Positions 3,815 to 40,599 of a stretch of DNA of 64,000 nt are shown here, piece by piece (within the stretch, counting starts at the first letter, position 1; the number at the start of each line of letters is the position of its first letter). The translations under genes and the position numbers were made by a program. Source of the stretch: Candidatus Dormiibacterota bacterium. Its GTDB lineage: Bacteria; Chloroflexota; Dormibacteria; Aeolococcales; Bog-877. Under the pieces are notes generated by a model. That model made no database searches and had not been told where the DNA came from. It saw only the letters and a list, made by a program, of their open reading frames with translations. The DNA lies in contig DAHUZL010000135.1 of assembly GCA_027306655.1 (NCBI GenBank), positions 6,677-70,676 on the forward strand, read 5' to 3'.

Positions 3815-5440
3815 TCAGCCTGCTCCGAGCTGGAGGGACACCGCGTCCAGCTCGGCCTCCGCCTCCGCCAGCCGATCCCGGCGGGCGCTCCGGGCCGGGG
3901 AGCCCGCCAGGGCGGACGCCCGTGCCCGCTCGACCGCCTCCGTCAGCGCGGGGACGATGCCAGCAGTGACGTCGTCGGCCTGGCGGCACCAGGTGGTGGC
4001 GGCCTCGTCGAGCGCACCCTGGGCGGCGTGGCGGAGCCGGCCCGCCAGCTGGTCCGCGCTCTCAGCCGCCTCGGCGTGCTGTGCACGGTCGCGCCAGCGC
4101 CGACCGATCGCCCCCGGGGCGCGGGCGCGCATCCCGCGCATCCCCACCGCCAGGGCGCCGGCGACGTCGGTGCGATCGATCGAGGCCCGGGTGACGGTGA
4201 GGACCGCCGGGGGCGCGGGCGGCCAGGCCAGCTCAACCGCCAACAGCTCTGAGGCGTCGGACAGGAAGCGGTCCCGAGCCGACCGAACCTGCTCGGCGAA
4301 TCGCGCCGCCCGGGGCGCCAGGTTGCGCTCCACCTCGCCTCGCACCTGCTCGCACCAGGCATCGGCGGATTCGGTCTGCAGGGCGGGCCAGCGCGACCGG
4401 TCCCTGGTCTCAGACAGCCGGATCGCCAGGGTCGAGCGGAGGCGGTCGGCCGCCGGCTCGACGATCGTCGTCCCGGCGGCCCGACACGCCTGCCGGAAGA
4501 CCGCCTTCGCCTCGTCGCTCGAGGTGCGCAGGACAGCCACAGCCAGGCCCAGCTGCTGACGATTGCTCTCGATCCTTGCATCGGGCAGTGAGAGGGATGC
4601 CTGCTCCAGGCGCAGCACCGAGACTGCCGCCGCGCGCTCCGCCCGACCCGCTGTGACCGCCCGCGTGTCGAGGATCTCGTTCCGGGCGGCGGCGACCTCG
4701 TCGACCAGCCATCGGCGCATCGCGGCGATCCCGTCGTCGCCACCGGGCTCCAGCGCTCTCCGCGCGGACACCGCGAAGAGGGGGACGGCGCCCCCGACGA
4801 CGTCGTCCAGCTGCCGGCGGACGAAGGCGATGGTCTCGCGTACGTCCGGCGGCGAGAGGCGATCCACCTTGTTGAGGCACACCCCGAGGCGGGCGTCCGC
4901 GTCCGAGACCAGGCGCATCTGGACCACCTCCGCGGCCGAGAGGGGCGCATCGGCGCTCAGGACCATGAGGGCGGCGTCGATCCGGGAGACGTACGCCGGC
5001 CATCCGAGCCGAGCCTCGACGATGCCGGCGCCATTGCCAAGGTTGTCCTGCTCGGTCACCGCCGCGCGCAGCCGCTCCAGCGGCCATGGCGCTCCCTCCC
5101 GATCGTCCTGGGTGGCCACCACCAGGCTGGGCCGCTCGGCCCATCGAACCAGGGTGGGGACGCCGGTGACGGGCACCGCCCCGGTGGGCAGGACGGCTTC
5201 GCCCAGGAGGGCGTTCATGATCGAGCTCTTGCCTCGCTTGAAGTCACCGACCACTGCCGCGACCACGGCCAGGTCCGCCAGCCTGTGTCGAGCCTCGCGG
5301 ATCCGCTCTCGCTGAGGCGGAGGGACCAGCGCACAGCGCTCGAGCCGGGCGAGCGCGTCCTCAAGCTTGGAGCGATCCCGATCCGCGCGGGCGGCCGGAC
5401 CGGTGGAGGGTCGCGCGGTCGGGCGGGTCACGGCGCGGAC
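3815..5440 (-). CDS. Dynamin-family (BDLP/IniA-like) GTPase. Start uncertain: the ORF is open to 5905 but overlaps the upstream gene.
   Basis: G1 'VVGDFKRGKSSIMNALLGEAVLPTG' and G4 'CLNKVDRL' are present. The G3 position reads 'IVEARLG' rather than 'VDTPG'. The protein is on the same strand as, and immediately downstream of, the Cys-repeat proteins and the Ehr operon. Confidence 0.5.
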   Translation of the reverse strand, partial: VRAVTRPTARPSTGPAARADRDRSKLEDALARLERCALVPPPQRERIREARHRLADLAVVAAVVGDFKRGKSSIMNALLGEAVLPTGAVPVTGVPTLVRWAERPSLVVATQDDREGAPWPLERLRAAVTEQDNLGNGAGIVEARLGWPAYVSRIDAALMVLSADAPLSAAEVVQMRLVSDADARLGVCLNKVDRLSPPDVRETIAFVRRQLDDVVGGAVPLFAVSARRALEPGGDDGIAAMRRWLVDEVAAARNEILDTRAVTAGRAERAAAVSVLRLEQASLSLPDARIESNRQQLGLAVAVLRTSSDEAKAVFRQACRAAGTTIVEPAADRLRSTLAIRLSETRDRSRWPALQTESADAWCEQVRGEVERNLAPRAARFAEQVRSARDRFLSDASELLAVELAWPPAPPAVLTVTRASIDRTDVAGALAVGMRGMRARAPGAIGRRWRDRAQHAEAAESADQLAGRLRHAAQGALDEAATTWCRQADDVTAGIVPALTEAVERARASALAGSPARSARRDRLAEAEAELDAVSLQLGAG

Positions 5441-6909
5441 GCCGCCGAACCGGGCTGACCGCTGGCCCCGGTGGGCGCCGAACCCGGGGGCCAGCTCCCG
5501 GCGCTGTCGAGCGCGCGCGGGTGCCATGCGCTCGCCTGCGTCTCCAGTCCGGACTCGAACCCCGAGCAGTACGCCGCCGCCCGGGCGGCGGCCCCGCCTT
5601 CGGCGCCCGCCGCCTCGTGCCGCGTGTCCCAGCTCTGCTTGCGGAGGACCTCGTCCAGCTCCCAGGTCAGCATCGCCAGCTGTGCGCGAGCGGCGACGAG
5701 AGCGGTGCGCGCCGCGCTCGTCTCCGAGGCGGCGGCGAGAACGTGGGGGAGGTCCCGCCAGCAGGACCCGGTGCCGGCCTGCTGATCGGCGACGCCGGCG
5801 GGGTCCAGCAGTCGGGCCGCGACCCACGCACTGCGGCGGACGGTTGCCACCTGTCGCTCCCGGCATCCGCGGCAGGGTCCGCGGTTGTCCAGCTGGCGGC
5901 GGCATCGGCTGACGAGCGCGGCGGGAGTCCGCGGTGCCGCTGACGGCCCGTCCTCATCGGCGAGCGCCTGGGCCAAGATCCGGGTGAGCTGTTCCGCCAG
6001 CATCGGAGCGCGGGAGGGGGCGGCGCGGGCGCACGCCCAGAGGTGTCGGCGGCAACCCCAGCGTGCCGCGGGGTCACTGGGGCTGGCCTCGCCGAGCTCG
6101 TCGGCGGCCCACGCGATCCATCGCCCCTCGGCGCGACGTCGATGGGCACAGACCGGACAGCCCTCCGGTCGCGGATCAGAACCGCCGGCGGACAGTCCCG
6201 CCGGGCCCGGCCGCCGTCGCGTTGCGTCGGAATCGCGGCCGGCGAGGACCGCGAGCCGGGCCCAGGTGAACGGCTCAGGCGGGGTGGGGTCAGGCCCGGG
6301 GGCGAGCTGGCGGCGGGCCAGGACGATCGCCGCGAGCGACTCCGCCGGAGAGAGCCGGCCCACCAGGCTCGTCGCGTGGACGACACAGAGCGCCTGGGCG
6401 CCTGCGGCGGCGGCGGCGATCTCGGGGTCGGCCAGGCCGGGACGCAGGAGCTCGATGCGGCGGTCGACCGACTCGGCGATACTGGTGCACGCCGGACAGG
6501 GGCGCTGGGGGCCGACGCGACGGGCGAGGAGCGCCGGCTCGGTGCGATCGAGCACGGTGAGGGCGCCTGCCACCGCCGCCGCCGCTGCCCGCACCACGGC
6601 GCCATGGACGACGGCGGCCATGCCGAGCTCGGCTCGGCCCGCCAGGTCGACCGCGTGCTGGGAGCAGAAGCCGCCGGCGTTGGCGATCTGCGCCAGGACG
6701 TCCGGATCGGAGTAGGACTCGGAGCAGAACCAGAACCAGTACCGCTCGGCGGTCCGTTGCTCCTCCCGGCAGAGCAGGCACCCGGGATCGGCGAGCTCCG
6801 CCGCCCAGGCGGCCCGCAGCTGGGCGCGGGTCGCCGAGGGCCGCCCCCGCCCGCGGAGGAGCCCGATCACCGCAGCAGGTCGACGGCCCCGGCCCATCCC
6901 CCGGTCCAG
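5428..6909 (-). CDS. Cys/Trp-rich repeat protein B. Four copies of a putative metal-binding module (CxxC ... C-x2-H-x-W). Function unknown.
   Basis: Repeats: 'CLLCREEQRTAERYWFWF...GFCSQHAV', 'CPACTS...ALCVVHAT', 'CPVCAHRRRAEGRWIAWA...RWGCRRHLWAC', 'CRGCRERQ...SCWRDLPH'. The opposite-strand ORFs are R/G/D-rich shadow frames. The start is approximate (M at 6909 or an internal GTG). Confidence 0.45.
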   Translation of the reverse strand: MDRGMGRGRRPAAVIGLLRGRGRPSATRAQLRAAWAAELADPGCLLCREEQRTAERYWFWFCSESYSDPDVLAQIANAGGFCSQHAVDLAGRAELGMAAVVHGAVVRAAAAAVAGALTVLDRTEPALLARRVGPQRPCPACTSIAESVDRRIELLRPGLADPEIAAAAAGAQALCVVHATSLVGRLSPAESLAAIVLARRQLAPGPDPTPPEPFTWARLAVLAGRDSDATRRRPGPAGLSAGGSDPRPEGCPVCAHRRRAEGRWIAWAADELGEASPSDPAARWGCRRHLWACARAAPSRAPMLAEQLTRILAQALADEDGPSAAPRTPAALVSRCRRQLDNRGPCRGCRERQVATVRRSAWVAARLLDPAGVADQQAGTGSCWRDLPHVLAAASETSAARTALVAARAQLAMLTWELDEVLRKQSWDTRHEAAGAEGGAAARAAAYCSGFESGLETQASAWHPRALDSAGSWPPGSAPTGASGQPGSAASAP

Positions 6910-7637
6910 GCGAGTCCCTCCACCCAGGCCGCCCGCTCCTCCGGGCCCACCGTCGGCCCCCGCCAGGTCATCGAGCGGCCGAACCGGGCGATCCGGCCGG
7001 CGAGGTCCTCCAGCGCCGACAGGCTGCGGAGGTGGTGGGGGTGGTCGGTGGGGCCGTCCAGCAGGTGGGGTCGGCAGAGCGGTCCGCCGCCGTCGAGGCA
7101 GAGGGGGCAGGCGCGCCGCTGCCACACCGGCTCCGTCGCCGCCACCAGCGCCATCGTGCGCCGGAGCCCCTCCATCGGTCGCATCGCCCGCAGCCAGCCG
7201 GCTCCGGGATGCGCGAGCGGGTTGTCGCCGGCCCGCTGCACCATCTCGATGAAGTCGCAGGTGAGACAGGGCCCGCGCTCCAGGAGCAGCCGGCGTCCGA
7301 CCGGCCAGGGCAGGCGGCAGGCGCGGCGCATCGCCCGGGCGGCCCGTGCGATGAGGTCCTCGTGGAGGACGGTGGTGGCGAAGGGGCGGCCACCCCTGCA
7401 CTCGATCTCCATCGCGGCGAACGCCCACCCGTGACGGCGGCACAACCCCCAGCTCCGCCACAGTTGATGGCGAACGTCGGCCACCATGATCGCGCCCCCG
7501 TCGAGCATCGACCAGACCTGGCGGAGCTCATCCACCTGGAGCGGCCTCTCGCGGAGGAGGGCTCGCGGGACGTGCGGCGCAGCCGCCATCTCGATTGCAT
7601 CCCCGTCCGCGCGGGCGGACCGACTCGGAGCCGGCAT
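6867..7637 (-). CDS. Cys/Trp-rich repeat protein A, a paralog of protein B with 2-3 modules
   Basis: 'WRSWGLCRRHGWAF', 'CLTCDFIEMV', 'CPLCLDGGGPLCRPHLL'. It is collinear with B modules ('WGxCRRHxWA ... RxCR ... GPCxxC'). The start codon is 1 nt past the stop of the NuoL-like gene. Confidence 0.45.
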   Translation of the reverse strand: MPAPSRSARADGDAIEMAAAPHVPRALLRERPLQVDELRQVWSMLDGGAIMVADVRHQLWRSWGLCRRHGWAFAAMEIECRGGRPFATTVLHEDLIARAARAMRRACRLPWPVGRRLLLERGPCLTCDFIEMVQRAGDNPLAHPGAGWLRAMRPMEGLRRTMALVAATEPVWQRRACPLCLDGGGPLCRPHLLDGPTDHPHHLRSLSALEDLAGRIARFGRSMTWRGPTVGPEERAAWVEGLAWTGGWAGAVDLLR

Positions 7638-7638
7638 C

Positions 7639-9732
7639 TCAGCGGATGAACAGGATGATGACGAACACCGCCACCACGTAGAGCAGGTAGAGGCTCACGC
7701 TGCCGGCCTGGAGGCGACCAGCGGCCCGCGACAGGCAGCGCGCGGCGCCGACCGCGGGCCGGTACACGTAGGCGTCGACCGGTTCCACCACCCGCCGGGC
7801 GTAGCGGAGGGAGCGGACGAAGTAGGGCGGCTGGTCGTAGTCGCCCTCGATCGCCCGCTGGGCGCGGAAGATGCCGCCGAAGATCGACCGGAACGGGTTG
7901 GTGAAGGCGGTCGCGGTGTACTGCATGGCGGGGTGCGGCTGAGCAATCGCACCGGCCCAGACCGCGGTCTCGCGGCGCGGCCGGCGACCGAGCAGGCGGA
8001 GCACACCGGCGGTGACGCCGATGACGATCGCGAGGGTGCAGAAGATGTAGGTGGGGGAGATGAAGGCGTCGGTGAAGCTGGTGGGGACGATGACCACCCC
8101 GTTGCCGGGGATCACCTGGTGGAGGAAGGTCGCCCCCAGGCGGACCGGGAGGGGGAACCGGCCGGGGTGGAGGAAGATCGGCGGCAGGACGGCGTCGAGC
8201 AGGCCGCGGACCCGGGTGGCGCTGCCGGCGGCCGCGGCCGCCGCCCCCACCCCCAGGGGCGGCACCAACGCGGTCAGCACCGCCGTGGCGGCGGTGACCA
8301 CCATGCCCAGCCGCATCGCCCAGGGCACCTCGCGGGCGCTCCGGGCGGCCTCGCTGCGGGCGACCCCGAGGAAGGTGCCGCCGACCACCCGCACGTAGGT
8401 GGTGACCGCGAGGGCGAAGGTCAGCGTCAAGAGCATCCCCGCCCCCGCCAGGGCGACCCGGCCCTCGGGGCTGCCGAGGATCCGGGCGCGGATCAGGACC
8501 TGCAGCCCCAGCCACTCGGTCTGGAAACCGTTCAGGGGGGGCACGCCGGCGAGCCCCATCGCCCCCAGGAAGAAGAGGAGGGTGGTCCAGCGCATGCGCC
8601 GGGCGAGCCCGCCGAGGCGGTCCATGTCGAGCTGATGGGTGGCGGTGTCGACACTGCCGGCGCCCATGAAGAGCGTGCTCTTGAGGAGGCCGTGGTAGAG
8701 CGTGTGGAGCAGGACCACGACCACCGCGGTGGCGGCGAGGAGCGGGTGGTGGCTCTGGCGGAAGACCAGCGCCGCGCCCAGCATCGCCACCATGAAGCCG
8801 AGGTTCTCGATCGTGCTGTAGGCGAGCATGCGCTTCAGGTCGGACACCAGCAGCGAGAACAGCACGCCATACAGGGCGGTGAGCACGCCCAGGCCGAGCG
8901 TGAGATAGCCCCACCAGGCTGCCGGCTCGGGCAGCAGCGTGACCAGGGCGAGCACGAGGCCGTAGATGCCCGTCTTCACGACCAGCCCGGAGAGGAGAGC
9001 CGAGACGTGGGCGGGCGCCGCCGGGTGCGCCTCCGGCAACCAGCCCTGGAGCGGCAGCAGGCCGGCCTTGACCCCGAAGCCGACCAGGAAGAGCACGAAG
9101 GCGGCCGAGGCCGCCGCCCCGCTGACCTGGGGGTGCCGGGCCAGCGCCACGAAGCTGACGCCGGGGTGGAGGGCGCCGACCAGCGCGAAGGCGACCACCA
9201 GGGCGAGGAAGCCCACCTTGGCCAGCGCCAGCAGCAGGAATGCCGCCTGGGGCCGGTGGGGTCGGTCGAACTCCACCGTCACCAACACGTAGCTGGCGAT
9301 CACCATGCACTCCCAGGCGACAAGGAACGTCACCGCATCGGCTGCGGCGACCACCACCACGATGGTGGCGAGGACGAGGGCGAGCAGCGCGTGGGCGGTG
9401 GCGCGACGCAGCGGCCCGCCAACATGGGCGGTGTAGGCGGCGGAGTAGAGGCAGACCCCGGTGCCGACGACGCCGGTGAGGAGGAGGAAGAGACCGCCGA
9501 GAGGCGTCGCCCGCACCGCGAACGCGCCGATCGGGGTCGACACCGGCAGGGCGGCATGGCCGTGCGCCCCGCCCAGCCAGAGAACGGCCGCCGCCACCGC
9601 GGCCAGGCTGGCGGCGACCCCCGCCGCCGCGGAGAGGTCACCGGCCGCCGGCCAGCGGGCGACCGAGAGCCCGATCGCCGCGGCGGCGATGTACGCGGCC
9701 AGGGCCGCGCCCAGGAGCTCAAGCGCCATCGC
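7639..9732 (-). CDS. NuoL/HyfB-like proton-pumping antiporter subunit of an Ehr/Hyf-type complex
   Basis: About 697 aa polytopic protein with 'WLPEAHPAAPAHVSALLSGLVVKTGIYG' and 'MLAYSTIENLGFM' (Mrp/NuoL signature). The start was chosen at 'MALELLGAAL' (9732). The ORF extension to 9954 overlaps the upstream gene. Confidence 0.8.
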   Translation of the reverse strand, partial: AMALELLGAALAAYIAAAAIGLSVARWPAAGDLSAAAGVAASLAAVAAAVLWLGGAHGHAALPVSTPIGAFAVRATPLGGLFLLLTGVVGTGVCLYSAAYTAHVGGPLRRATAHALLALVLATIVVVVAAADAVTFLVAWECMVIASYVLVTVEFDRPHRPQAAFLLLALAKVGFLALVVAFALVGALHPGVSFVALARHPQVSGAAASAAFVLFLVGFGVKAGLLPLQGWLPEAHPAAPAHVSALLSGLVVKTGIYGLVLALVTLLPEPAAWWGYLTLGLGVLTALYGVLFSLLVSDLKRMLAYSTIENLGFMVAMLGAALVFRQSHHPLLAATAVVVVLLHTLYHGLLKSTLFMGAGSVDTATHQLDMDRLGGLARRMRWTTLLFFLGAMGLAGVPPLNGFQTEWLGLQVLIRARILGSPEGRVALAGAGMLLTLTFALAVTTYVRVVGGTFLGVARSEAARSAREVPWAMRLGMVVTAATAVLTALVPPLGVGAAAAAAGSATRVRGLLDAVLPPIFLHPGRFPLPVRLGATFLHQVIPGNGVVIVPTSFTDAFISPTYIFCTLAIVIGVTAGVLRLLGRRPRRETAVWAGAIAQPHPAMQYTATAFTNPFRSIFGGIFRAQRAIEGDYDQPPYFVRSLRYARRVVEPVDAYVYRPAVGAARCLSRAAGRLQAGSVSLYLLYVVAVFVIILFIR

Positions 9733-10561
9733 GCGCCTCCCCGGCTCGCGGGGCGCGCTCGGTCGCCCGATCGATGGCCAGCAGCAGCCCGTGCAGGAGC
9801 GCCTGCGGGGTGGGCGGGCAGCCGGGCACGTAGACGTCGACCGGGAGGCAGCGGTCGAGCGGCCCCACCGTCGTCGGCCCGCCCGCGAAGCAGCCGCCGT
9901 GGATCGCACAGACCCCGGCCGCGAGGACCAGCTTGGGCGACGGCATCGCGGCATAGGTGGCCCGCAGCGCCGCCTCCATGTTCTCGGTCACCACCCCCGT
10001 GACCAGCAGGACGTCGGCATGCCGCGGGGTGGGGGTGAAGAAGATCCCGAGCCGGTGCAGGTCGACGTAGGGGGTGCCCAGCATCTGCAGCTCCGCCTCG
10101 CAGCCGTTGCAGGACCCGGCGTCGACGTGACGGATGTGGAGCGAGTGGCGGAACAACCGGTGGCCGTGGCGCCGCACCGCGTCCGCCGCCCGCGTCAGGG
10201 GACGCGGCGCGGGCGGGCGGCCGGGCTCCCAGCCCAGCTCCAGGGTGAGACGGCCGCGGTCACGCACGGCGACGCGCGGGTCGGGGTCGACGGCAAAGGC
10301 CTGCGGGAACGCCCGCACGCATCGCCCGCAGAGGACGCAGGCGCCCTGATCGAATCGGAGCGTTCCGGCGGCCTCGGTCCCGGTCGCGGTGAGCGCCGCC
10401 GTGGGGCAGAGGGCGGCCGCCGCCAGCGCATCGGCGGGTGTGAGCCCAGGCCAGCGGCAGGTGATCGACGACGGTGCCCCGTCGTCGCCCACGCCGGCCG
10501 GACGGGGAAAGCGCGTCGTCCGGGTCCCAGTCCGAAGGCCACAGGCGATCCACCGGCTCAT
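9719..10561 (-). CDS. Fused 4Fe-4S ferredoxin-like segment plus NuoB/HycG-like small subunit
   Basis: N-terminal 'CPTAAL...CVLCGRCVRAFP'. NuoB-like part: 'GSCNGCEAE', 'PRHADVLLVTGVV', 'GVCAIHGGCF', 'VPGCPP', so the four FeS Cys are retained. The ATG at 10561 overlaps the large-subunit stop as ATGA. Confidence 0.8.
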   Translation of the reverse strand: MSRWIACGLRTGTRTTRFPRPAGVGDDGAPSSITCRWPGLTPADALAAAALCPTAALTATGTEAAGTLRFDQGACVLCGRCVRAFPQAFAVDPDPRVAVRDRGRLTLELGWEPGRPPAPRPLTRAADAVRRHGHRLFRHSLHIRHVDAGSCNGCEAELQMLGTPYVDLHRLGIFFTPTPRHADVLLVTGVVTENMEAALRATYAAMPSPKLVLAAGVCAIHGGCFAGGPTTVGPLDRCLPVDVYVPGCPPTPQALLHGLLLAIDRATERAPRAGEARDGA

Positions 10562-12102
10562 CGGTCGAACTCCGCCACCGAGAGGTCGAAGCTGGCCTCG
10601 ATCACCGGGTAGTCGGTGAGGTTGTTGCCGCTGGCGCAGGCGTGGGCGTAGGGATGCCAGTTGACCACCGCCGGCGGTCGCGCGCGCCAGTGCCGCACCC
10701 GCCCGTCGCTGTCGAGCTCCACGAAGGCCAGGGTCTCGCCGCCGGGGGCCTCCGCCCAGCCGAGGGCGGCGCCGGCGCGGAGCTCCGGCGGTCCCATCGG
10801 GCCCGGGGCCTCGATCCAGACATCGAGGAGCCGTCGGAGCAGGCCGAGCGACGCGTCGATCTCGTCGAGGCGCACCTGCAGCCGTGCCGCCGCGTCGCCG
10901 TCGCGTCGCACCGGGACCCGGATCGGGAGCCCGGGGTAGGCGAGGTACGGGTGGTCGCGTCGCGCGTCGCAATCGGCTCCGGACGCCCGGCCGACAGGGC
11001 CGACCAGCTGGTGCCGCTCCGCATACGCGGGCTCCAGCACCGCGGTGGTGTCGAGGCGGTCCAGGAACGTCGAGGTCTCGTCGAGGAGCGCGCGCAGCGC
11101 CGACGCTCGATCGGCCCACCCGTCCACCCGCCGGCGCAGGTGGTGGGGGACGACCGAGGGCTGGATGGCGTCGGCCCCGCCGATGGACAGGCACCCGCGC
11201 AGGTACCGGTGGCCGGTGAGGTCGGCGGCGGTGCGCAGGAGCTCCTCGGTGAGGAGCCCGTACTGGGCGCTCGCCACCAGCAGGCCGGTGGCGTCGGCGA
11301 GGCGCGTGACCGCGGCGCAGTGGCTGCGCACGCGCTCCAGCTCGGCCAGGCAGGTCCGGGTCCACTCCGCGGCGGGGCCGACCGCGATGCCGGCGGCGCG
11401 CTCCACCGCCCGGGCGAAGGCGAGGGCGGTGGCGAAGCTGGAGGTCCCGGCCAGCCGCTCGGCGAAGACGAGGGCCCGGTCCGCCGGCAGTCCCTCGGCC
11501 ATCCGCTCCAGGGCCCGGAACTTGTAGCCAAGGCGCGGGCTGACCTGGACCAGGTCCTCCCCACCGGAGCTGAAGAGGAACGCGGCCGACTCCTGGGGCC
11601 CGCTGCGGACCGGGCCGAGGGGGAGCTGGACGAGACCCTGGCCCTCGACGGCCGGTCCGAAGGCGGGGCGCGGGTCCGCCCCGGCCGGGAACTCGGGCGC
11701 CGATGGCGACCGCAGCGGCGGAGCGCCCGGCGAGAGGTGGCGCCGCAGCGGGGCCGGGCGCGGGTGCCCGATCGGCTCCAGCCCGTGAGCCTCCCAGATC
11801 TCGCGTTCGTACCAGCTCGCCGCATGCACGATCGGGGTGAGCGAGGCGAAGGTCGTCCCCTGCAGCTCCGTCGAGAGGACGAGCCACTGCGGGTCGCCGT
11901 GGAGCTGGAGGACGGCGGTGAGCCGGGGTCGGCGCGCGTCGTCGGCGGTGGCGAAGAGGTCGGCGAGGACCGCCGGTCCGGCGAGCCCGGCGACCAGCTC
12001 GGTGAACACCGCCTCGGGGCAGCTCGCCTGCAGCTCGTCGTCGGCCACCGCCCGCGTCCGCAGGCCGCGGTCCTCCGCCAGCTGGCGAAGGGATCGGGTC
12101 AT
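10558..12102 (-). CDS. NuoC+NuoD fused HycE-like 'large subunit' lacking NiFe-binding cysteines
   Basis: 514 aa. NuoC-like 'ASWYEREIWEAHGLEP'. NuoD-like 'LPLGPVRSGPQESAAFLF...RLGYKFRALE'. C-terminus 'NWHPYAHACASGNNLTDYPVIEASFDLSVAEFDR'. No N-terminal RxCxxC motif and no C-terminal DPCxxC motif is present. Confidence 0.8.
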   Translation of the reverse strand: MTRSLRQLAEDRGLRTRAVADDELQASCPEAVFTELVAGLAGPAVLADLFATADDARRPRLTAVLQLHGDPQWLVLSTELQGTTFASLTPIVHAASWYEREIWEAHGLEPIGHPRPAPLRRHLSPGAPPLRSPSAPEFPAGADPRPAFGPAVEGQGLVQLPLGPVRSGPQESAAFLFSSGGEDLVQVSPRLGYKFRALERMAEGLPADRALVFAERLAGTSSFATALAFARAVERAAGIAVGPAAEWTRTCLAELERVRSHCAAVTRLADATGLLVASAQYGLLTEELLRTAADLTGHRYLRGCLSIGGADAIQPSVVPHHLRRRVDGWADRASALRALLDETSTFLDRLDTTAVLEPAYAERHQLVGPVGRASGADCDARRDHPYLAYPGLPIRVPVRRDGDAAARLQVRLDEIDASLGLLRRLLDVWIEAPGPMGPPELRAGAALGWAEAPGGETLAFVELDSDGRVRHWRARPPAVVNWHPYAHACASGNNLTDYPVIEASFDLSVAEFDR

Positions 12103-13580
12103 CGCCGCACCTCGCGAGCCGCGTCGGCGAGCAGGGTGTGGAGGGGCCCGGGAACGAAGACGCCGAGGACCAGGACCGCCGCCAGGAGGACATAGCCAGG
12201 GAGCAGGACCGCCGCTCCGAGCTCGGCCCGCCGCGGGAGCGGGTCGGCCCGACCCTCGCCGAACACCATCGTGCTGAAGGGGGCGACCAGGGCGAGGAAC
12301 CCCACCAGCAGGAGGAGGGCGATCAGGCCGGCGGCGCCGAAGGCGCGGGCCCCGATCCCGCCCGCGACGATCGACGCCTCCGAGAGGAAGAGCCCGAACG
12401 GAGGCGCTCCCGCGATGGCGAGGGCCCCGGCCAGCACCAGGACGGCGGCCGCCGGGGCGACCCGGATCATGCCTCGGACCTCGCTGATGGTGGTGGTGCG
12501 GAAGCGGAGGAGGAGGTTGCCGGCGTTGAAGAACATGAGGCACTTGGCGAGGCTGTGGGCCAGCATCTGGAGCAGCGCGCCGAACACCGCCAGGGGGGCG
12601 CCCAGCCCGAAGCCGGCGGCGATCAGGCCCATCTGGTCGACCGACGAGTAGGCCAGCAGTCGCTTGTAGTCGCGCTGGGAGACGAGGAAGACGACCCCCA
12701 CGGCCATCGAGAGGAGCCCGAAGGCGAGCAGGGCGGAGTGAAGCTCGCTGCCCCCGTGCTGCGCCGGGGTGGCCAGCGCCAGCACCCGGACGATCGCGAG
12801 CATGGCGCAGTTGAGCTCGGCGCCGGACAGCATCGAGCAGATCGGGGCAGGGGCCTGGCTGTGCGCGTCGGGGAGCCAGGTGTGCATCGGCGCCAGCCCG
12901 GCCTTGGTGCCGAAGCCGACGAGCACCAAGAGGAACCCCAGGGTGGCGAGAGTGGGGGAGAGATGGGGCCCCGCGGCGCGCAGGACGGGGATCGCGAAGT
13001 TGTAGCTGCCGCCGAGCCACCCGACCGCCGACGCGTAGAGGCACAGGAATCCGAACAGGGCGATCAGCTCGCCCGCCACCGCCAGCATGATGAACTTCCA
13101 CGCTGCCTCCAGAGGACCGTGGGACCCGTAAAAGTCGACCAGCGGAGCGGAGGCGAATGTGGTTGCGGTCACCGCGGTCCACAGCAGGCCGAGGTTGCCG
13201 GCCACCGTGGCCGCCACCATGGTGAAGACGAAGAGGTGGAAGAGGGCGAAGTACCGGCGCGTCTCGCCGGCGCGCAGGGTGTGGACGTTCGCGGAGGAGC
13301 GGAAGTAGGCGATCGAGTAGAGGGCGGCCAGCGCGGAGACCAGCGTCACGATCAGGAGCGCGAGCGCACCGAGGTGGTCAAGGTAGAGCCAGTCGCCGAA
13401 CGCCGTGAACCGGCCCCGCTGCACCACCCGGGCGACCAGCGTGAGTCCCAGACCGAGGCCCACGAGTGCGGTCGGGACGACCAGGATCAGGCGCAGGTCA
13501 TCCCCCGGCACCAGCCAGGTCGCGACCGCGGCGGCCAGCGGCACCGCCAGCACGGCGAGCAGGAGCGCGGCGTCGATCAT
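12099..13580 (-). CDS. NuoN/NuoM/HyfF-like antiporter subunit
   Basis: Start at 'MIDAALLLAV'. Motifs 'GFGTKAGLAPMHTWLPDAHSQAPAPICSMLSG' and 'LLAYSSVDQMG'. The upstream R/P-rich ORF extension is rejected. The gene overlaps its neighbour by 4 nt. Confidence 0.75.
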   Translation of the reverse strand: MIDAALLLAVLAVPLAAAVATWLVPGDDLRLILVVPTALVGLGLGLTLVARVVQRGRFTAFGDWLYLDHLGALALLIVTLVSALAALYSIAYFRSSANVHTLRAGETRRYFALFHLFVFTMVAATVAGNLGLLWTAVTATTFASAPLVDFYGSHGPLEAAWKFIMLAVAGELIALFGFLCLYASAVGWLGGSYNFAIPVLRAAGPHLSPTLATLGFLLVLVGFGTKAGLAPMHTWLPDAHSQAPAPICSMLSGAELNCAMLAIVRVLALATPAQHGGSELHSALLAFGLLSMAVGVVFLVSQRDYKRLLAYSSVDQMGLIAAGFGLGAPLAVFGALLQMLAHSLAKCLMFFNAGNLLLRFRTTTISEVRGMIRVAPAAAVLVLAGALAIAGAPPFGLFLSEASIVAGGIGARAFGAAGLIALLLLVGFLALVAPFSTMVFGEGRADPLPRRAELGAAVLLPGYVLLAAVLVLGVFVPGPLHTLLADAAREVRR

Positions 13581-14221
13581 CCGCGCAGCCGGGTGAGCTC
13601 GGAGGTGTCGGTGCTGAAGACCTCCTCGCGCATCCGAGCCAGCAGGAAGGACATCACCACTACCGCGATCAGGACGTCGAGGACCAGGGCGAACTCGATC
13701 AGCAGGCTCAGCCGCGGCGCCAGCACCAGCCCGATCAGGAGGAGCCCGTTCTCGGCCGCCAGCAGGCCCCCCATCTGGAGCACGCCGTCGCGTCGGGCGG
13801 TGGTGGTGAAGAGGCCGAGGAGCAGGACGGCGATGCCGATGCCGAGGTCGGCCCCGGGGAGGAGATGGGACGGCGAGGGGATCCGGCTGGCCGCGATGAA
13901 GCCGGCCAGCGACAGGGCGGCGCCGAGCAGGAGCGCGGTGGGGAACCCCACGTGGTAGGAGCTCTCCCGACCGGCGCTGAGGGCGACCCGCATCCGCCGG
14001 CGCAGAAGGGTGGGGATCGCCACCCCCTTGAGGGACACGATCAGCAGGCCGAAGAGGAGCAGCTCCGTCAGGTGGGTGTGGACGAAGAGAGCGATCGCGA
14101 TGCCGCCGAGCAGCCACGACTGGAGCTGGTAGGCGCCCACCGCCGTGCGCAGGCGACGGGCCACGATCAGCTGGAAGCTGACCAAAAGGAAGAGGGCCGC
14201 GAGGGTGATCTCAGGCAGCAC
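13577..14221 (-). CDS. HyfE/HycP-like small membrane subunit
   Basis: 214 aa with about 7 TM segments, positioned between the NuoH-like and NuoN-like genes as in hyf/hyc operons. Confidence 0.65.
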   Translation of the reverse strand: MLPEITLAALFLLVSFQLIVARRLRTAVGAYQLQSWLLGGIAIALFVHTHLTELLLFGLLIVSLKGVAIPTLLRRRMRVALSAGRESSYHVGFPTALLLGAALSLAGFIAASRIPSPSHLLPGADLGIGIAVLLLGLFTTTARRDGVLQMGGLLAAENGLLLIGLVLAPRLSLLIEFALVLDVLIAVVVMSFLLARMREEVFSTDTSELTRLRG

Positions 14222-14263
14222 GGGACCATCCCCCGGATCGACGCCGGGCGTCGGCCATCGCCG

Positions 14264-15295
14264 TCACCGCCCCAGGGTGGAGAGCACCAGGCCCAGGAAC
14301 GCGAGCACGAAGCTGCCCCCGAGGTACTCGGGCACGCGCATGATCCGGATCTTGGCGAGCGCGGACTCGATCACCACGATCAGGAAGGCGGCGGCCAGCA
14401 TCTTGCCGACGAGCGTGGCGATCGCCACCGCGAAGGCGGGGACGGTCACCGCTCCCGCCAGTCCGGGGGGGAAGACCAGCACGTTGAGCCAGACCACCAG
14501 CACCACGAAGAGCTTCATGGCGCCTCCCCATTCCATCAGCGCCTGGTCAGAACCGGCGTACTCGAACAGGCGGGAGGACTCGATCATGGAGAGCTCCTGG
14601 GCGCTGTTGGGGTTGTCGATCGGGAGCCGTCCGGTCTCGGCCAGGACCACCATCAGGAAGGCGGCCGCGATCAGCGCATGGCTCGGGGTGATCGCGGCGG
14701 AGCTGGTGAAGAGGGTCTGGTTGACCACGAACGGCACCGTCCCGCCGGAGATGAACCCGACCGCGAAGAACACCACGATGAAGGTGGGCTCAGCCAGCGA
14801 GGAGACGAAGCGGGACCGGCTCGCGCCCAGGCCGCCGTAGACGCTGCCGCTGTCCATCGCCGCCAGGTTGGTGAAGAAGCCGCCGATGCCGATGACGAAC
14901 CCGCTCCCCACCATGTCGGCCATGAACGCCCAGCTGAGCGGGGCGGCGGTGAGGACCGGGATGAGGACGGCGAAGGCGATCGGCGTCGCGAAGACCACGT
15001 AGGGGGCGACGCGGAAGATGAACGAGGCGTCAGGGGTGGTGGAGCGGTCCTTGCCGAAGAGCTTGCGGAGGTCGCGGTAGGGCTGCAGCGGTGACGGCCC
15101 CCGCCGCGACTGCAGCCTCGCCTTGCCGGTCTCGATCACCCCCTTCAGCAGGGGCGCGAGCGCGAGCACGACCAGCAGCGCGACTACCTGGCCGACCGCG
15201 TCGGCTAGCACGTGGCACCCCAGGTGGACCCGATCGAGGCTCGCGCCATCCCCCAACTCCCGAAAGGCCTTCCGGTCTTCGTGGTCAGGGGCCAT
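14264..15295 (-). CDS. NuoH/HycD/HyfC-like membrane subunit
   Basis: 'APLLKGVIETGKARLQSRRGPSPLQPYRDLRKLF' is the NuoH/HycD N-terminal signature. It is the first gene of the operon. The true start is probably an internal GTG near 15211. Confidence 0.75.
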   Translation of the reverse strand: MAPDHEDRKAFRELGDGASLDRVHLGCHVLADAVGQVVALLVVLALAPLLKGVIETGKARLQSRRGPSPLQPYRDLRKLFGKDRSTTPDASFIFRVAPYVVFATPIAFAVLIPVLTAAPLSWAFMADMVGSGFVIGIGGFFTNLAAMDSGSVYGGLGASRSRFVSSLAEPTFIVVFFAVGFISGGTVPFVVNQTLFTSSAAITPSHALIAAAFLMVVLAETGRLPIDNPNSAQELSMIESSRLFEYAGSDQALMEWGGAMKLFVVLVVWLNVLVFPPGLAGAVTVPAFAVAIATLVGKMLAAAFLIVVIESALAKIRIMRVPEYLGGSFVLAFLGLVLSTLGR

Positions 15296-16607: not shown

Positions 16608-17315
16608 TCACTCCTCGGTCGGCAGGTGGACGTAGAGGGACTGGATCCCGACCCGGCCCGGCCCCTCGAAGCGGTTGAAGACCAGGCGGCCGACGCCGCC
16701 GAAGATCCCGGTGCGCAGCCCGTACACCTGGGGCCGCATCCGCACGGTCGGGTCCATGTAGACCCAGCCGCCCGGCTCGACGTCGATCGCCTCGCCCTGG
16801 GCCAGCTCCTTCTCGAAGACGTTGCCGTAGCCGTGGAGCCAGACCACCCCGTCGTCGTCGCGGGCCTCGAAGCGGTCGAGCCAGAGGCCGTTGCCGCCGA
16901 ACAGGTTGTTGGTGACACCGCGGATCCGCCTCGGGGTGAAGCGCAGGCTCCCGCTGGCGGCGAGGAACTGGTGCTCGCGCACCAGCACCACCTCGCCCCT
17001 GGCGAGCGGGAGCGGGAAGACGTGACCGGGAGCGTCGCGGGAGAAGGCGATCGAGCCCGCGCCGCGGGCCTGGGTGAGGAACACCGGCATCCCCAGGACC
17101 ATCCGCCGCACCGCCCCCCGCATCGGACGCAGCGTCACCCCCAGCTGCGGATCCTTCCAGAGGACCAGGTGGTGCTCGAAGAAGAGCGGGACCGAGCCGT
17201 CGAGGGTGCAGTGGAGCACCGGCACCAGCTCCCCCGCGATCCGGTACCGGATCCCGGGGGCCCAGCCCTCGCTGATGCGGGTCGGCAGGATGGTGGGCGG
17301 GCTGCTCATGGGCAC
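16608..17315 (-). CDS. AIM24/DUF124 family protein
   Basis: 235 aa, 'ISEGWAPGIRYRIAGELVPVLHCTL...LWLDRFEARDDDGVVWLHGYG'. Confidence 0.7.
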   Translation of the reverse strand: MPMSSPPTILPTRISEGWAPGIRYRIAGELVPVLHCTLDGSVPLFFEHHLVLWKDPQLGVTLRPMRGAVRRMVLGMPVFLTQARGAGSIAFSRDAPGHVFPLPLARGEVVLVREHQFLAASGSLRFTPRRIRGVTNNLFGGNGLWLDRFEARDDDGVVWLHGYGNVFEKELAQGEAIDVEPGGWVYMDPTVRMRPQVYGLRTGIFGGVGRLVFNRFEGPGRVGIQSLYVHLPTEE

Positions 17316-17391: not shown

Positions 17392-18306
17392 TCAGAGGTG
17401 GATGGTGGGGACCCCGCCGGCGGTCACCTGGAGGGCGGCCCACATCCCGGCCGGCTCGTGGCCGGGCACCAGGCAGGCGATCCGGTAGCTCCCGGCCGCC
17501 CCCGTGACGAAGTGGAAGGTGGCGTGGCCCCCGGGGGCCACCCCCTTGACCGGGTCGGGCAGGGCGGCGCCGGCGAAGACCGGGGTCGTCCCGGTGGCGG
17601 TGACCACCGCTGCCGAGTGGTTGAGGCTGGCGACATTGCTGAAGTCGACCGTCACCGTCCAGCCGGTGGGGATCCCGATTCGCATCCCCCCCGAGGTGGT
17701 GCCGTTGTAGTCGAGGCCGTCGTTCACGTTGCCGTAGCCGGCGACCAGCTGGAGGGTGACGGTCCGGGCGGCGGCGTCGTAGCGAAGCCAGCGATCCAGC
17801 GAGACGGTCGCCGCCGTCGGGGTCGGACGCGGGCGGGGGCTCGGGCGCGCGCTCGGGCTGGGGTGGGGGCTCCGCACCGGGGACGTGCTCTGGGGCAGGA
17901 CGGCGCCGGACGGCGAGGCCGCGGGGAGGTGGACGTCGAGGGTGGCCGTGATCAGGCCGTCGATCAGGACCGCGATCCGGCCGCGGTGCCGGGTCTGCCC
18001 GTCGACCGTCCATCCCGTCAGCGGGGGCGCCCCTGGCAGCCGCGCCGAGGGCCCCAGCCGGGCGGTGAGCCCGCAGGGGATGGAGAGGGTGCTGGTCGGT
18101 TGGTCGAGGAGGGTGGACCGGCCCCCGACGGTGGCCATCGCTCCGGCCACCGGGTGGCCGCCCCGGAGCGGCAGGGAGACGGTGAGCGAGCACCCGGAGC
18201 CCGTGGCCGGGGAGTTGAGCGGGCCCCGGCCGCAGCCGCCCACGGTGAGCGCGGCGGCGACGAGGCAGCCGCCGAGGGCGACCGCCCGGGTCGTGGGCTG
18301 GGCCAT
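17392..18306 (-). CDS. Lipoprotein with a C-terminal type-1 copper (cupredoxin/sulfocyanin-like) domain
   Basis: N-terminal signal with lipobox-like 'LTVGGC'. P/S-rich linker 'SPHPSPSARPSPRPRPTPT'. Copper ligands 'HATFHF ... IACLVPGHEPAGMW' (His...Cys-x4-His-x4-Met). The upstream part of the 655-aa ORF is rejected. Confidence 0.6.
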   Translation of the reverse strand: MAQPTTRAVALGGCLVAAALTVGGCGRGPLNSPATGSGCSLTVSLPLRGGHPVAGAMATVGGRSTLLDQPTSTLSIPCGLTARLGPSARLPGAPPLTGWTVDGQTRHRGRIAVLIDGLITATLDVHLPAASPSGAVLPQSTSPVRSPHPSPSARPSPRPRPTPTAATVSLDRWLRYDAAARTVTLQLVAGYGNVNDGLDYNGTTSGGMRIGIPTGWTVTVDFSNVASLNHSAAVVTATGTTPVFAGAALPDPVKGVAPGGHATFHFVTGAAGSYRIACLVPGHEPAGMWAALQVTAGGVPTIHL

Positions 18307-29486: not shown

Positions 29487-29644
29487 CGGCCATCGATGAG
29501 GCTGAGGCACCATGATAGGTCCTGAGTTTGTCCTCTCAGCCAGTTGACGAGGGCGACTCGCCCACGGCCTTATTGAGATCAGACGGTCGGGGCTAGAGTC
29601 ACCTCGGGCCGCCCTCGTCATCAACGGCACCGGGAGGGAGCACA

Positions 29645-31492
29645 GTGTTGGCGACGGGAGGTCGAAGGCGAGCCGGGCAGTGCCGGTATCCGGGACCGAT
29701 CTTGACGGGCGCCCTTGTGATGGGCCTGGTGGCGGGGTGCGGCCAGGTTGCGAGCCACGAGCCGGCCCGCCCAGCCGTCGCGGGCACCGTGACCTTTGCC
29801 GACGCGCCGGGCAACCCTCCGAACTACGTGTTCCCGCTCTTGTCCCTGGCCAACGACGCACCGGCGAATCCTGACGGATTTGTCAACCTCCTCTACCCGC
29901 CCCTGTATGCATTCGGGGTCGGTGACAAGCCGGTGGTGAACACGCGGCGCAGTCTGGCCGACCTTCCCACATACTCCAACGGCGGCCGGACGGTGACGAT
30001 CGATCTCAAGCCGTTCCGATGGTCCGATGGGTGGCCCGTCACCAGCCGTGACGTCCAATTCTGGCAGGACCTGGTCACAGCCAACAAGGCCAACTGGGTC
30101 GGGTACGTTCCGGGCGGCTACCCCGACAACGTGGTGCGTTTCCGACTTATCGGCCCACGTCGCTTCACCATCACATTCAACCGACCCTATGGCCGGTACT
30201 GGCTGCTCTACAATGAACTGAGTCAGCTATGGGCCATCCCGCAACACGCGTGGGACAGGACCTCTTCGGGGCAGCCGGTCGGCAACGCCGATCGGACTGC
30301 AGCTGGAGCGCGGGCCGTATACCACTTCCTCGATGCTCAGGCTCGTACCCTCACCACATACGCGAGTAACCCACTTTGGCGAGTGGTGGACGGCCCGTGG
30401 CGAATTGCCACCTACGCACCGTCGACAGGCTATCTGGCCCTGGTGCCCAACCGGCACTACGCCGGCCCGGACCGTCCGCACCTTGCCCGGATTGAGGAGA
30501 TTCCCTTTACCTCAGACTCGGCCGAGTTTGATGCCCTCCGCTCGGGCGCGATCGACTATGGGTACCTTCCCACCCAGGACCTTCCTCAGCTCAGCTACCT
30601 CACCCACCACGGCTTTCAGTTCCGACCCTGGATCGGCTGGGAGATCAGTTACATCCTGTTCAATTTTACGAATCCCCGGGAGGCGCCGCTTTTCGGGCAG
30701 CTATACCTGCGCCAAGCAATGCAACGGCTAGTAGATCAGCCAGCCTGGATCCGGGACATTCTCAAGGGTTACGGGTATGCCACGACCGGTCCGGTTCCGA
30801 CCCGGCCGCCGAGCACGTTCATCAGTCCCTTCGAATCCCGCATCCCATACCCATACAACCCGGGCTCCGCCATCCGCCTGCTTCGCGAGCACGGGTGGAG
30901 GGTGCATCCGGATGGAGTCACAATCTGCGCTCGGGGCGGATCGGGTGCGCATTCCTGTGGTCCCGGCGTGGCCCGCGGCGCAGCATTGGACTTCACACTG
31001 CTCCAAGCCAGCGGAAACCTTGCCATTCTGCAGGAGATGGAGGCATTCAAGTCGGAGCTGTCGCGCGTGGGGATCCAGATCTCGATCGCGCAGGCGCCTG
31101 AGGGTACGGTGGTGGCAGATACGGCGCCATGCACTCGAGCCACGGGGGCCGGCTGTAGCTGGGATCTCAGCAATTGGGACATCGGAGCCGACGGAAGCTG
31201 GCTCTATGGCCTCGACCACTATCCGACGGGTGGCGCGATTTTTGCCTCCGGGGCGGGTGCCAACGGTGGTGGCTATAGCGATCCTCACTCAGACGCGCTG
31301 ATCTCTGCCACCCATACGTCGAGCAGCCTCTCGGCCCTCTATCGATACGAGGACTATCTGGCCCGCCAGCTTCCGGTCCTGTGGATCCCGAACCAGGACA
31401 ATTACCTCACCATCATTCGCTCAAGCCTCCGCGGCGCACTCCCCCAGAATCCCTTTGGCACAATCGAGCCGCAGGATTGGCGATTCAACTGA
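29645..31492 (+). CDS. ABC transporter substrate-binding lipoprotein, family 5 (peptide/opine/nickel type)
   Basis: Lipobox 'LVAGCGQ'. 'RWSDGWPVTSRDVQFWQDLVTANKANW' is a family-5 signature. The gene lies inside the lower-GC island. Confidence 0.75.
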   Translation: MLATGGRRRAGQCRYPGPILTGALVMGLVAGCGQVASHEPARPAVAGTVTFADAPGNPPNYVFPLLSLANDAPANPDGFVNLLYPPLYAFGVGDKPVVNTRRSLADLPTYSNGGRTVTIDLKPFRWSDGWPVTSRDVQFWQDLVTANKANWVGYVPGGYPDNVVRFRLIGPRRFTITFNRPYGRYWLLYNELSQLWAIPQHAWDRTSSGQPVGNADRTAAGARAVYHFLDAQARTLTTYASNPLWRVVDGPWRIATYAPSTGYLALVPNRHYAGPDRPHLARIEEIPFTSDSAEFDALRSGAIDYGYLPTQDLPQLSYLTHHGFQFRPWIGWEISYILFNFTNPREAPLFGQLYLRQAMQRLVDQPAWIRDILKGYGYATTGPVPTRPPSTFISPFESRIPYPYNPGSAIRLLREHGWRVHPDGVTICARGGSGAHSCGPGVARGAALDFTLLQASGNLAILQEMEAFKSELSRVGIQISIAQAPEGTVVADTAPCTRATGAGCSWDLSNWDIGADGSWLYGLDHYPTGGAIFASGAGANGGGYSDPHSDALISATHTSSSLSALYRYEDYLARQLPVLWIPNQDNYLTIIRSSLRGALPQNPFGTIEPQDWRFN

Positions 31493-31521
31493 CGGCGGAG
31501 ACGGCGGCTGCCTTCCGCCAT

Positions 31522-32790: not shown

Positions 32791-32818
32791 TCTGTCCCAA
32801 CTCTACCGAGTGCGCGCG

Positions 32819-35852: not shown

Positions 35853-35853
35853 C

Positions 35854-36858: not shown

Positions 36859-37018
36859 CTCCCTCACGGCCGGAGCTGTTGACCACGGGGGTGGAGCGGA
36901 CGGTTCTGGTGCAGATGCAGGTGCGGGCATGGGGGGTGGGCGAGACTGACCCGTAGAACTGTGGCCGGCCGGCTTCCTTCGGCGCAATTGGCCGACCGAC
37001 CAAGTCAGGATCCCGACC

Positions 37019-38665: not shown

Positions 38666-38767
38666 GTGGAGTTCGCGATTGTGTTATCGGCCAATTGCCA
38701 TGTCCATCGGGGCGGGTCACACTCGGCCCCGTACAGGGGCGTCGACCGACGCGTGGGGGATTTGGGG

Positions 38768-40591: not shown

Positions 40592-40599
40592 GGATCGGG

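Follow-up and report, generated by a model that had tools for sequence, protein, structure and literature searches.

The six-gene locus

We analysed a putative energy-converting complex encoded in a 64-kb window of a Candidatus Dormiibacterota bacterium (contig DAHUZL010000135.1 of assembly GCA_027306655.1; the window is the whole stretch of DNA under study, with a G+C content of ~75%). Six co-directional minus-strand genes, here called g1 to g6, fill positions 7639-15295. In the direction of transcription, g1 (14264..15211) encodes a HycD/NuoH-like membrane anchor of 315 aa, g2 (13577..14221) a HyfE-like small membrane subunit of 214 aa, and g3 (12099..13580) a HyfF/NuoN-like antiporter-like subunit of 493 aa. 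They are followed by g4 (10558..12102), a 514-aa NuoC+NuoD fusion that corresponds to the HycE/HyfG-like “large subunit” but has no NiFe ligands, by g5 (9719..10561), in which a HycF/NuoI-like ferredoxin half is fused to a HycG/NuoB-like small subunit (280 aa), and by g6 (7639..9729), a HyfB/HycC-like antiporter-like subunit of 696 aa. A preliminary description, made from the sequence alone, had proposed this six-gene locus and these subunit identities, and both are borne out by Pfam, NCBIfam and PDB-sequence matches. Sequence comparison indicates that the six-subunit complex is derived from Hyf/Hyc-type (group 4) energy-converting hydrogenases, and that it very probably belongs to the energy-converting hydrogenase-related (Ehr) class of non-hydrogenases, an assignment we make with high confidence. 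Its large and small subunits are homologous to those of the group 4 [NiFe] enzymes and share their fold, and its proximal [4Fe-4S] cluster is likewise of the CxxC type.

The genes are closely spaced. According to the preliminary description all junctions were 4-nt overlaps; this holds for g2/g3, g3/g4 and g4/g5, each of which overlaps by an ATGA, but not for g1/g2 or g5/g6. The g1/g2 junction is a 42-nt spacer, in which a GGGGGA ribosome-binding site precedes the g2 start codon (GTG 14221), and the GTGA at the g1 stop is the start of another frame that ends after 18 codons. The overlap between g5 and g6 is 11 nt. For g1, the longest open reading frame (ORF) begins at ATG 15295 and would yield 343 aa, but a start at GTG 15211 is more likely, because this column holds M or V in 11/11 aligned Dormibacterota-type orthologues and the residues upstream are not conserved.

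All four membrane subunits point to the Hyc/Hyf family. The g1 product matches PF00146 (104 bits), and its PDB matches are only HycD (134 bits), MbhM and MbsM; no sequence match to solved complex I NuoH/ND1 chains was obtained at E<1e-3. Its ND1-loop reads 'PIDNPNSAQEL' in place of HycD 'PFDLAEAEQEL', the loop 'PIDNPNS(A/S)QELSMIESS' is conserved across the g1 family, and E138, E189 and E203 of HycD are kept. The g2 product has no Pfam match and no PDB sequence match; it aligns over its full length with NCBIfam NF008556 (hydrogenase 4 membrane subunit; 75.7 bits, under the curated cutoff), is present in all related loci and carries an invariant 'AENGL' as well as a C-terminal 'STDTSELTRLRG' motif. 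Both antiporter-like subunits match PF00361, g3 with 142 bits and g6 with 168 bits. Their best NCBIfam models, each below its cutoff, are hydrogenase 4 subunit F for g3 (404 bits) and subunit B for g6 (506 bits), and their best PDB matches are MbhH (116 bits) and HycC (172 bits), respectively. The Lys of transmembrane helix (TM) 8 and the Glu of TM12 are kept in both proteins. In g6 the TM5 Glu and TM7 Lys are present too, with the latter replaced by Ser or Thr in many clade members.

Large subunit, redox wire and relatives

The g4 protein combines PF00329 and PF00346, and reaches 15.6 bits with PF00374, under the cutoff of that family. Its best PDB-sequence match is E. coli HycE (144 bits, E 5e-41). 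An AlphaFold model (predicted local distance difference test score, pLDDT, of 86) superimposes on HycE (7z0s_E) with template-modelling scores of 0.91/0.89, and on E. coli NuoCD with ~0.86. In the alignment to HycE, all four NiFe-ligating Cys are replaced, namely by A218, S221, S508 and E511. What remains of the N-terminal motif (11431..11460, minus strand; residues 215-224, located by alignment with HycE and MbhL) reads 'ERLAGTSSFA' against HycE 'DRVCGICGFA'. When one more residue is included ('ERLAGTSSFAT' against 'DRVCGICGFAH'), the entire L1 motif RxCGxCxxxH is seen to be absent, its Cys having become Ala and Ser and its His Thr. The C-terminal remnant (10561..10593, minus strand; residues 504-514) reads 'SFDLSVAEFDR' against 'S(L/I)DPCxxCxxR', so the L2 motif DPCxxCxx(H/R) is likewise absent ('DLSVAEFDR', with Ser and Glu for Cys). 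The HycE alignment thereby agrees with the preliminary description, which had reported RxCGxC and DPCxxCxxH as missing. The stop codon directly follows ...FDR, leaving no C-terminal extension for a HycI-type protease. We considered selenocysteine recoding as a source of the missing Cys and rejected it: the codons at the four positions are standard ones for Ala, Ser, Ser and Glu, and ...DR, where the ORF stops, is the usual end. As predicted from these residues, g4 cannot hold a canonical [NiFe] centre.

The loss of the ligands is shared by the relatives of g4. Among 1.84 billion cluster representatives, 339 are related to g4 at <1e-30. The four NiFe Cys are missing from all 120 closest homologues; of the best 150 representatives, 107 carry no Cys at any of these ligand positions and 28 carry three or all four. 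The two N-terminal columns are C/C in these 28 Cys-containing representatives, and are mostly S/A/E/T in the 107 Cys-less ones. We placed g4 in a neighbour-joining tree without bootstrap, built from 142 sequences: HycE, MbhL and 140 cluster representatives, one of which is g4 itself. It falls inside a large, exclusively Cys-less clade, with the HycE/MbhL-type hydrogenases on a separate branch. Another Cys-containing clade, marked by 'SFELCYAC' and probably group-4f-like, is sister to a second Cys-less clade. An actinobacterial (Acidimicrobiales/Aciditerrimonas) Cys-less clade branches apart from the Dormibacterota clade, and a search with a 492-aa representative of the clade that contains the Aciditerrimonas sequence returned only Acidimicrobiales-type sequences.

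The nearest relatives of g4 come from Candidatus Dormibacterota metagenome-assembled genomes (MAGs; 53-63% identity) and from an unclassified MAG (70%). The order H-E-N-CD-FdB-L is the same in all 10 complete Dormibacterota-type loci, and what is left of 4 truncated loci agrees with it. Ratios of nonsynonymous to synonymous substitution rates (dN/dS), from three pairwise comparisons with loci L010, L005 and L001, lie at 0.16-0.53 for all six genes. In each comparison g4 has the highest value of the six (0.30-0.53), while the HycD-like g1 lies at 0.16-0.20. As judged from these ratios and the shared gene order, the complex is under purifying selection and conserved as a unit across Candidatus Dormibacterota-type genomes. 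Because the Cys are missing from 120/120 homologues and from a separate clade, and because gene order is conserved at dN/dS of 0.16-0.53, the Cys-less state is a lineage trait and not decay. The Ehr-like reading put forward in the preliminary description is upheld by the same homologues and clade placement, together with a HycE homology and fold that lack the NiFe ligands.

Further pocket residues have changed within the clade of g4, and we number them as in PMC9474812. The loop His (HycE His188) corresponds to Arg166 in this clade; across the 107 Cys-less relatives the position is His in 47 and Arg in 44. The L1 His, which is Thr in g4 and mostly Asn in its clade relatives, is kept in 77/107. 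Glu171, the equivalent of HycE Glu193, is invariant in the clade. C489 is the sole clade-conserved Cys of g4 and is missing in sister clades. The beta1-beta2 loop (residues 166-170) has a pLDDT <50 in the model, and the aerobically prepared formate hydrogenlyase (FHL) structure has only weak density for its beta1-beta2 loop (PMC9474812).

The electron-transfer part of the complex resides in g5, which combines PF01058 with sub-threshold 4Fe-4S matches that represent a Fer4 remnant. Its best PDB matches are MbhJ (133 bits) and then HycG (116 bits). The NuoB/HycG-like domain (9758..10144, minus strand; residues 140-268) retains C151, C154, C218 and C248 as ligands of the proximal cluster. Across 117 homologues these Cys are present in 93-100%; they are the four that the preliminary description had seen retained. 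The spacing in 'GSCNGCE' is of the hydrogenase CxxC type and identical to MbhJ, and not the tandem CC of complex I; membrane-bound hydrogenases do not have such consecutive Cys, which complex I typically has (PMC9474812). The ferredoxin-like core (10286..10480, minus strand; residues 28-92) has one [4Fe-4S] site, formed by C52, C75, C78 and C81. From motif I (CxxCxxCxxxCP) only the fourth Cys, C52, is left, and from motif II the first three, C75, C78 and C81, the fourth being F85. Since Cys from the two motifs usually cross-ligate the clusters, the remaining residues amount to one complete [4Fe-4S] site, with the other fully gone. All 82 clade members have these four Cys (100%) and none has a Cys at the remaining four positions (0%), whereas 86-89% of 35 more distant, mostly proteobacterial, fused homologues keep all eight ferredoxin Cys. 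By the ligand rule for Nqo9, the remaining set presumably corresponds to N6b of Thermus Nqo9, the cluster next to N2. The redox wire is thus predicted to consist of two [4Fe-4S] clusters, one in the HycF-like half-domain and the proximal one in the HycG/NuoB-like domain. Its entry point is a surface domain to which nothing further is attached.

Two observations on other loci concern this subunit. Proteobacteria and Verrucomicrobia commonly have ferredoxin+NuoB fusions of 262-283 aa that retain the full set of eight ferredoxin Cys (hosts include Rhodopila, Rudaea, Rhizomicrobium, Caulobacteraceae and Opitutaceae), and the fusion is therefore older than the one-cluster state of the Dormibacterota clade. 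A more distant Ehr-type locus with the order L-H-E-N-CD-FdB, L017 (JACPRP010000107.1, 8090-8998, from a Chloroflexi groundwater MAG), encodes a small subunit with two full Cys motifs in its ferredoxin domain and acidic residues at 3/4 proximal-cluster Cys positions ('GSDNSCD', 'GDEAC', 'PGDPP'). To judge from these motifs, it looks like a variant without the N2-equivalent cluster.

Genomic neighbourhood

In a scan of ~45 proteins of the 64-kb window we found no hyp, hycI, fdh, nif or canonical ferredoxin gene. The preliminary description had suggested that an absence of hyp maturation genes would support a non-hydrogenase role. None occur in the window, but the check does not discriminate: hyp genes elsewhere in the genome would be uninformative because [NiFe] hydrogenases of group 1 or group 3 are common in Dormibacterota genomes (10.1101/2021.08.23.457424). 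In the related loci, where ORFs were picked by G+C content at third minus second codon positions, the recurring neighbours of the complex are APC-type transporters, MutS-like ATPases, ABC components and aldo-keto reductases, which recur within sub-lineages only.

Three tightly spaced minus-strand genes follow g6 (3815-7637). The first (g7, 6867-7637) starts 1 nt past the g6 stop and encodes a Cys-rich 256-aa protein with no Pfam match. It shares a GTGA overlap with the gene for a DUF6062-like 480-aa protein (5428-6870), which is followed by a dynamin-family GTPase gene (3815 to ~5527). A weak 'WG-CRRH-W ... RGPC..C' repeat is common to the Cys-rich and DUF6062-like proteins. We considered g7 as a seventh subunit and rejected it, as it adjoins the complex only in locus L005. 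In metagenomes its only homologue takes the form of a tandem pair, and the contig that carries this pair has no Ehr genes; the genes downstream of g6 are not associated with the complex in other loci.

On the other side, ~1.3 and 2.1 kb upstream of the complex, lies a minus-strand pair that encodes an AIM24-family protein (16608-17315) and a protein with a sulfocyanin (SoxE)-type cupredoxin domain (17392-18306; PF06525, 72.6 bits); divergent thioesterase and methyltransferase genes stand in between. Further away, positions ~29600-40600 form an island of lower G+C (63-68% vs ~75% elsewhere) with two family-5 solute-binding proteins, an M28 peptidase, a PucR-type regulator and an N,N-dimethylformamidase beta-subunit-like protein (PF20254, 283 bits). 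This island may be a horizontally acquired amide/peptide catabolic block. At 44100-45827 (plus strand) there is a gene for a full-length DUF6909 protein (623 bits), flanked by genes for a short-chain dehydrogenase, a pterin-4a-carbinolamine dehydratase and a DUF3417/glycogen-phosphorylase-like protein.

Candidate functions and comparison with known complexes

The best overall explanation, to which we give an even chance, is that the complex works reversibly as an oxidoreductase that translocates ions and receives its electrons from a ferredoxin-type carrier. In this mechanism, a soluble low-potential one-electron carrier of the ferredoxin or flavodoxin type would dock at the exposed HycF-like domain, and electrons would pass via the two clusters to an acceptor at the place where g4, g5 and the HycD-like g1 meet. 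That acceptor would most plausibly be a membrane quinone, by elimination, and the free energy would be coupled to H+ or Na+ translocation through g1, g2, g3 and g6. The complex may also run in reverse and use an ion gradient to drive electron transfer from quinol to ferredoxin. The parts of this proposal differ in strength. A ferredoxin-type donor is roughly an even call, while quinone as the acceptor, for which we argue by elimination and by analogy with complex I and with a published proposal for the Hyq complex of Azorhizobium caulinodans, is put forward only tentatively.

Several results weigh against the proposed oxidoreductase, in particular against its quinone and coupling steps. The complex I quinone residues are absent: in a phmmer alignment, the position of Nqo4 Tyr87 is Gly219 and that of His38 is Gln170 (Nqo4 numbering). 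The canopy Arg (HycE Arg478) is Gly in 72/75 members of the clade of g4, although it is kept in 80/107 Cys-less relatives. The canopy Asp (HycE Asp529) is retained only in the g4 of this window and is Ala, Gly or Ser across the rest of the clade, at a position that is variable among Cys-less relatives generally. In complex I, mutation of the canopy Arg or Asp impairs quinone reduction (PMC9474812). The case for quinone is weak because both the Tyr/His site and the canopy residues are missing. In the membrane arm, the HycD channel residues R108, E130, E199, E201 and Y102 have become G, S, N, A and F in g1, and throughout the Dormibacterota clade g3 has Thr for the TM5 Glu and Asn for the TM7 Lys (with a Glu at -2). 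Since the channel residues are replaced and the TM5-Glu/TM7-Lys pair is gone from g3, the predicted coupling may differ from that of known relatives or be weakened. We also searched the related loci for conserved neighbours that might serve as electron-donor or electron-acceptor partners and found none. The tree that separates g4 from the hydrogenases was built by neighbour joining only and holds no named Ehr, HydDB or complex I references. Finally, the only genetic data on a six-subunit Cys-less relative, Azorhizobium Hyq, have been read as H2 metabolism (PMC2650096, PMC3357923).

A narrower, unlikely version of the ferredoxin-linked oxidoreductase is a minimal ferredoxin:quinone oxidoreductase that in aerobes would normally run uphill, driven by the ion gradient, from quinol through the proximal cluster and the one HycF-like cluster to ferredoxin or flavodoxin. 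If true, it would explain why Cys-less relatives occur in aerobes that need low-potential electrons, for example Nitrospira with its reductive tricarboxylic acid cycle and diazotrophic alpha-proteobacteria with hyq in the nif regulon, and it would recast the H2 phenotype ascribed to Hyq.

For Mbs, catalysis at the cluster itself has been proposed. An enzyme like the archaeal Mbx and Mbs complexes, with a soluble or sulfur-type acceptor instead of quinone and with catalysis at the proximal [4Fe-4S] cluster or close to it, would fit a complex in which the classical pocket residues are dismantled, and MbsL, MbsJ, MbsM and MbsH are all detectable homologues of its subunits. We nevertheless hold this to be improbable. 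Mbs proteins always score below their Hyc/Mbh counterparts (MbsL 87 vs HycE 144 bits; MbsM 37 vs HycD 134 bits), and the locus has six genes only, with no Mrp-type MbsA-G module. Scans of the window proteins revealed no sulfur-metabolism genes nearby, and the lineage is an aerobic soil group (10.1101/2021.08.23.457424).

We also weighed an “endo-hydrogenase” like Hyq, that is, an H2:quinone oxidoreductase that handles H2 at a non-canonical site without the four Cys. Hyq has the same six subunit types, with a HyqG that lacks both CxxC motifs; its deletion slows diazotrophic growth, and both uptake and evolution of H2 in vivo have been attributed to it (PMC2650096, PMC3357923). The invariant Glu171 can be added on this side. 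Nevertheless, no metal-ligand set is left in g4, whose sole conserved Cys, C489, does not extend to the sister clades. The L1 His, canopy Arg, canopy Asp and His188 equivalent are also lost in the clade, and there is neither a C-terminal extension for maturation nor a hyp or hycI gene in the window. The architectures differ too, since HyqI is without a ferredoxin domain, and even in the words of the Hyq authors the presence of a NiFe site in HyqG is 'uncertain, if not unlikely' (PMC3357923). HydDB excludes Ehr as homologues that do not metabolise H2 (PMC5037454), and in Nitrospira moscoviensis the expression of Ehr is not raised by H2 (PMC12342949). An H2-metabolising role is accordingly very doubtful.

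Alternatively, the complex could be an Mrp-type cation/proton antiporter whose peripheral arm is a redox sensor or gate and not catalytic. The two Mrp-type antiporter-like subunits with their small membrane subunit, a substrate pocket without any known catalytic residue set, and the lack of a conserved donor or acceptor partner nearby are consistent with such a function. It is made a distant prospect by the strictly conserved two-cluster wire, leading from the surface ferredoxin-like domain to the proximal position, which is more than sensing seems to need, and by the absence from g3 of the TM5/TM7 ion pair that active antiporter modules typically have. The loss of the catalytic Cys and of several active-site and proton-channel residues, and a g4 dN/dS that is the highest of the six, might suggest the functionless remains of a decaying hydrogenase operon; this is effectively excluded by six intact ORFs with three translationally coupled junctions, dN/dS of 0.16-0.53, eight Fe-S Cys kept in 93-100% of homologues, identical gene order in 10 complete loci from several MAG lineages, and a Cys-less state that is typical of large, deep clades.

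Whatever its reaction, this is a stripped-down version of an Ehr-type complex, with six genes, two Fe-S clusters, no partner genes and a pocket from which the known hydrogenase and quinone-site residues are gone; it therefore narrows what any mechanism must explain. Ehr-type complexes are widespread, occurring also in Sulfobacillus, Geobacter, Acidimicrobiales-type actinobacteria, rhizobia and Candidatus Dormibacterota-type soil bacteria, and they have no demonstrated function twenty years after they were named. The locus could be a convenient choice for structural or biochemical studies of their role.

Among the known systems, respiratory complex I and the ferredoxin-dependent NDH-1/Fpo share with the locus a homologous Q-module and membrane-arm architecture. 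With complex I the likeness would extend to the proposed principle, an Fe-S wire that leads to the NuoB/NuoD/NuoH interface and is coupled to antiporter-like subunits. Unlike complex I, the locus has no NuoA, NuoJ, NuoK, NuoE, NuoF or NuoG, carries CxxC instead of the tandem CC, and has no Tyr87 or His38 equivalent; an input module for NADH or F420, as in complex I or Fpo, is likewise absent from the operon and from the window. It is also set apart from Mbs and Mbx, the archaeal sulfane reductase type, by its six genes, against 13-14 subunits with an Mrp-like MbsA-G module. Close to the locus are also E. coli Hyc (FHL-1, PDB 7Z0S) and the Hyf (hydrogenase-4) gene set. HycD, HycE and HycC are the first PDB matches of their counterparts, and HycG is second after MbhJ; HyfE, HyfF and HyfB are the best NCBIfam matches of g2, g3 and g6. 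As in Hyc, the proximal cluster is of the CxxC type and the large subunit is a NuoC-NuoD fusion. In contrast to Hyc and Hyf, the locus lacks the NiFe ligands, FdhF, HycB/HyfA, HyfD, HycI and hyp genes, and its HycF has shrunk to the one-cluster N-terminal half, which is fused to the HycG-like part. The “hyc” locus of M. tuberculosis, Rv0082-Rv0087, presumably has similar subunit types, namely NuoB-like, NuoL-like, HycD, HycP (HyfE-like), HycQ (HyfF-like) and HycE.

We compared Hyq of A. caulinodans by its published description and not by sequence. It is encoded by hyqRBCEFGI and comprises six structural subunits, which are HyfB-, HyfC-, HyfE-, HyfF-, HyfG- and HyfI-like (PMC2650096, PMC3357923). 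As in the present locus, its large subunit, HyqG (~504 aa), is a NuoC::NuoD fusion without either CxxC motif, and its small subunit, HyqI, has a CxxC...C...C proximal cluster. HyqG also carries three Cys that are conserved in its family. The differences are that HyqI, to go by its ligand numbering (Cys55-Cys152), is a plain NuoB homologue, whereas g5 adds the HycF-like domain; that the order is B-C-E-F-G-I against C-E-F-G-(H')I-B in the window; and that hyq belongs to the nif regulon and is NifA-dependent, whereas the window holds no nif genes.

Ehr was reportedly named in Geobacter sulfurreducens (GSU0739-0745) by Coppi in 2005, and is said to have been generalised by Marreiros et al. in 2013. 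In the literature, Ehr complexes are described as devoid of NiFe ligands and are not counted among the hydrogenases (PMC6349859, PMC5037454, PMC10284858, PMC12342949), and HydDB leaves them out as homologues without H2 metabolism (PMC5037454). They have been reported in Nitrospira, where their function was called unknown in papers from 2023 and 2025 (PMC10284858, PMC12342949) and where about half of the Nitrospirales genomes analysed encode one (PMC12342949), in Margulisbacteria/Saganbacteria (PMC6349859), and in the Chloroflexi supergroup, including Dormibacterota (10.1101/2021.08.23.457424). In Sulfobacillus, six syntenic genes lie near a motif-less catalytic subunit and include NuoH/NuoL and HyfE/HyfB homologues (PMC4378227). 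Like these complexes, the present one has group-4-type large and small subunits with both CxxC pairs missing from the large subunit, as well as NuoH-like, HyfE-like and NuoL/HyfB-like membrane subunits, and its composition fits both the EhrA/C/L/S naming in Geobacter (PMC7894505) and the Sulfobacillus set (PMC4378227). Unlike the FDH-Ehr proposed for Margulisbacteria, it has no formate dehydrogenase (FDH) nearby. It also departs from other Ehr in that the small subunit of its clade carries a single-cluster HycF-like half-domain and in that the L1 His, canopy Arg and loop His, which most other Cys-less relatives keep, are gone. The Cys-less six-gene kind is already published, as Ehr, as the Sulfobacillus set and as Azorhizobium Hyq, and the locus adds no new category; the details that go without mention in the cited Ehr and Hyq literature are three, namely the one-cluster ferredoxin half, the loss of the canopy, L1 and loop residues, and the remodelled HycD channel.

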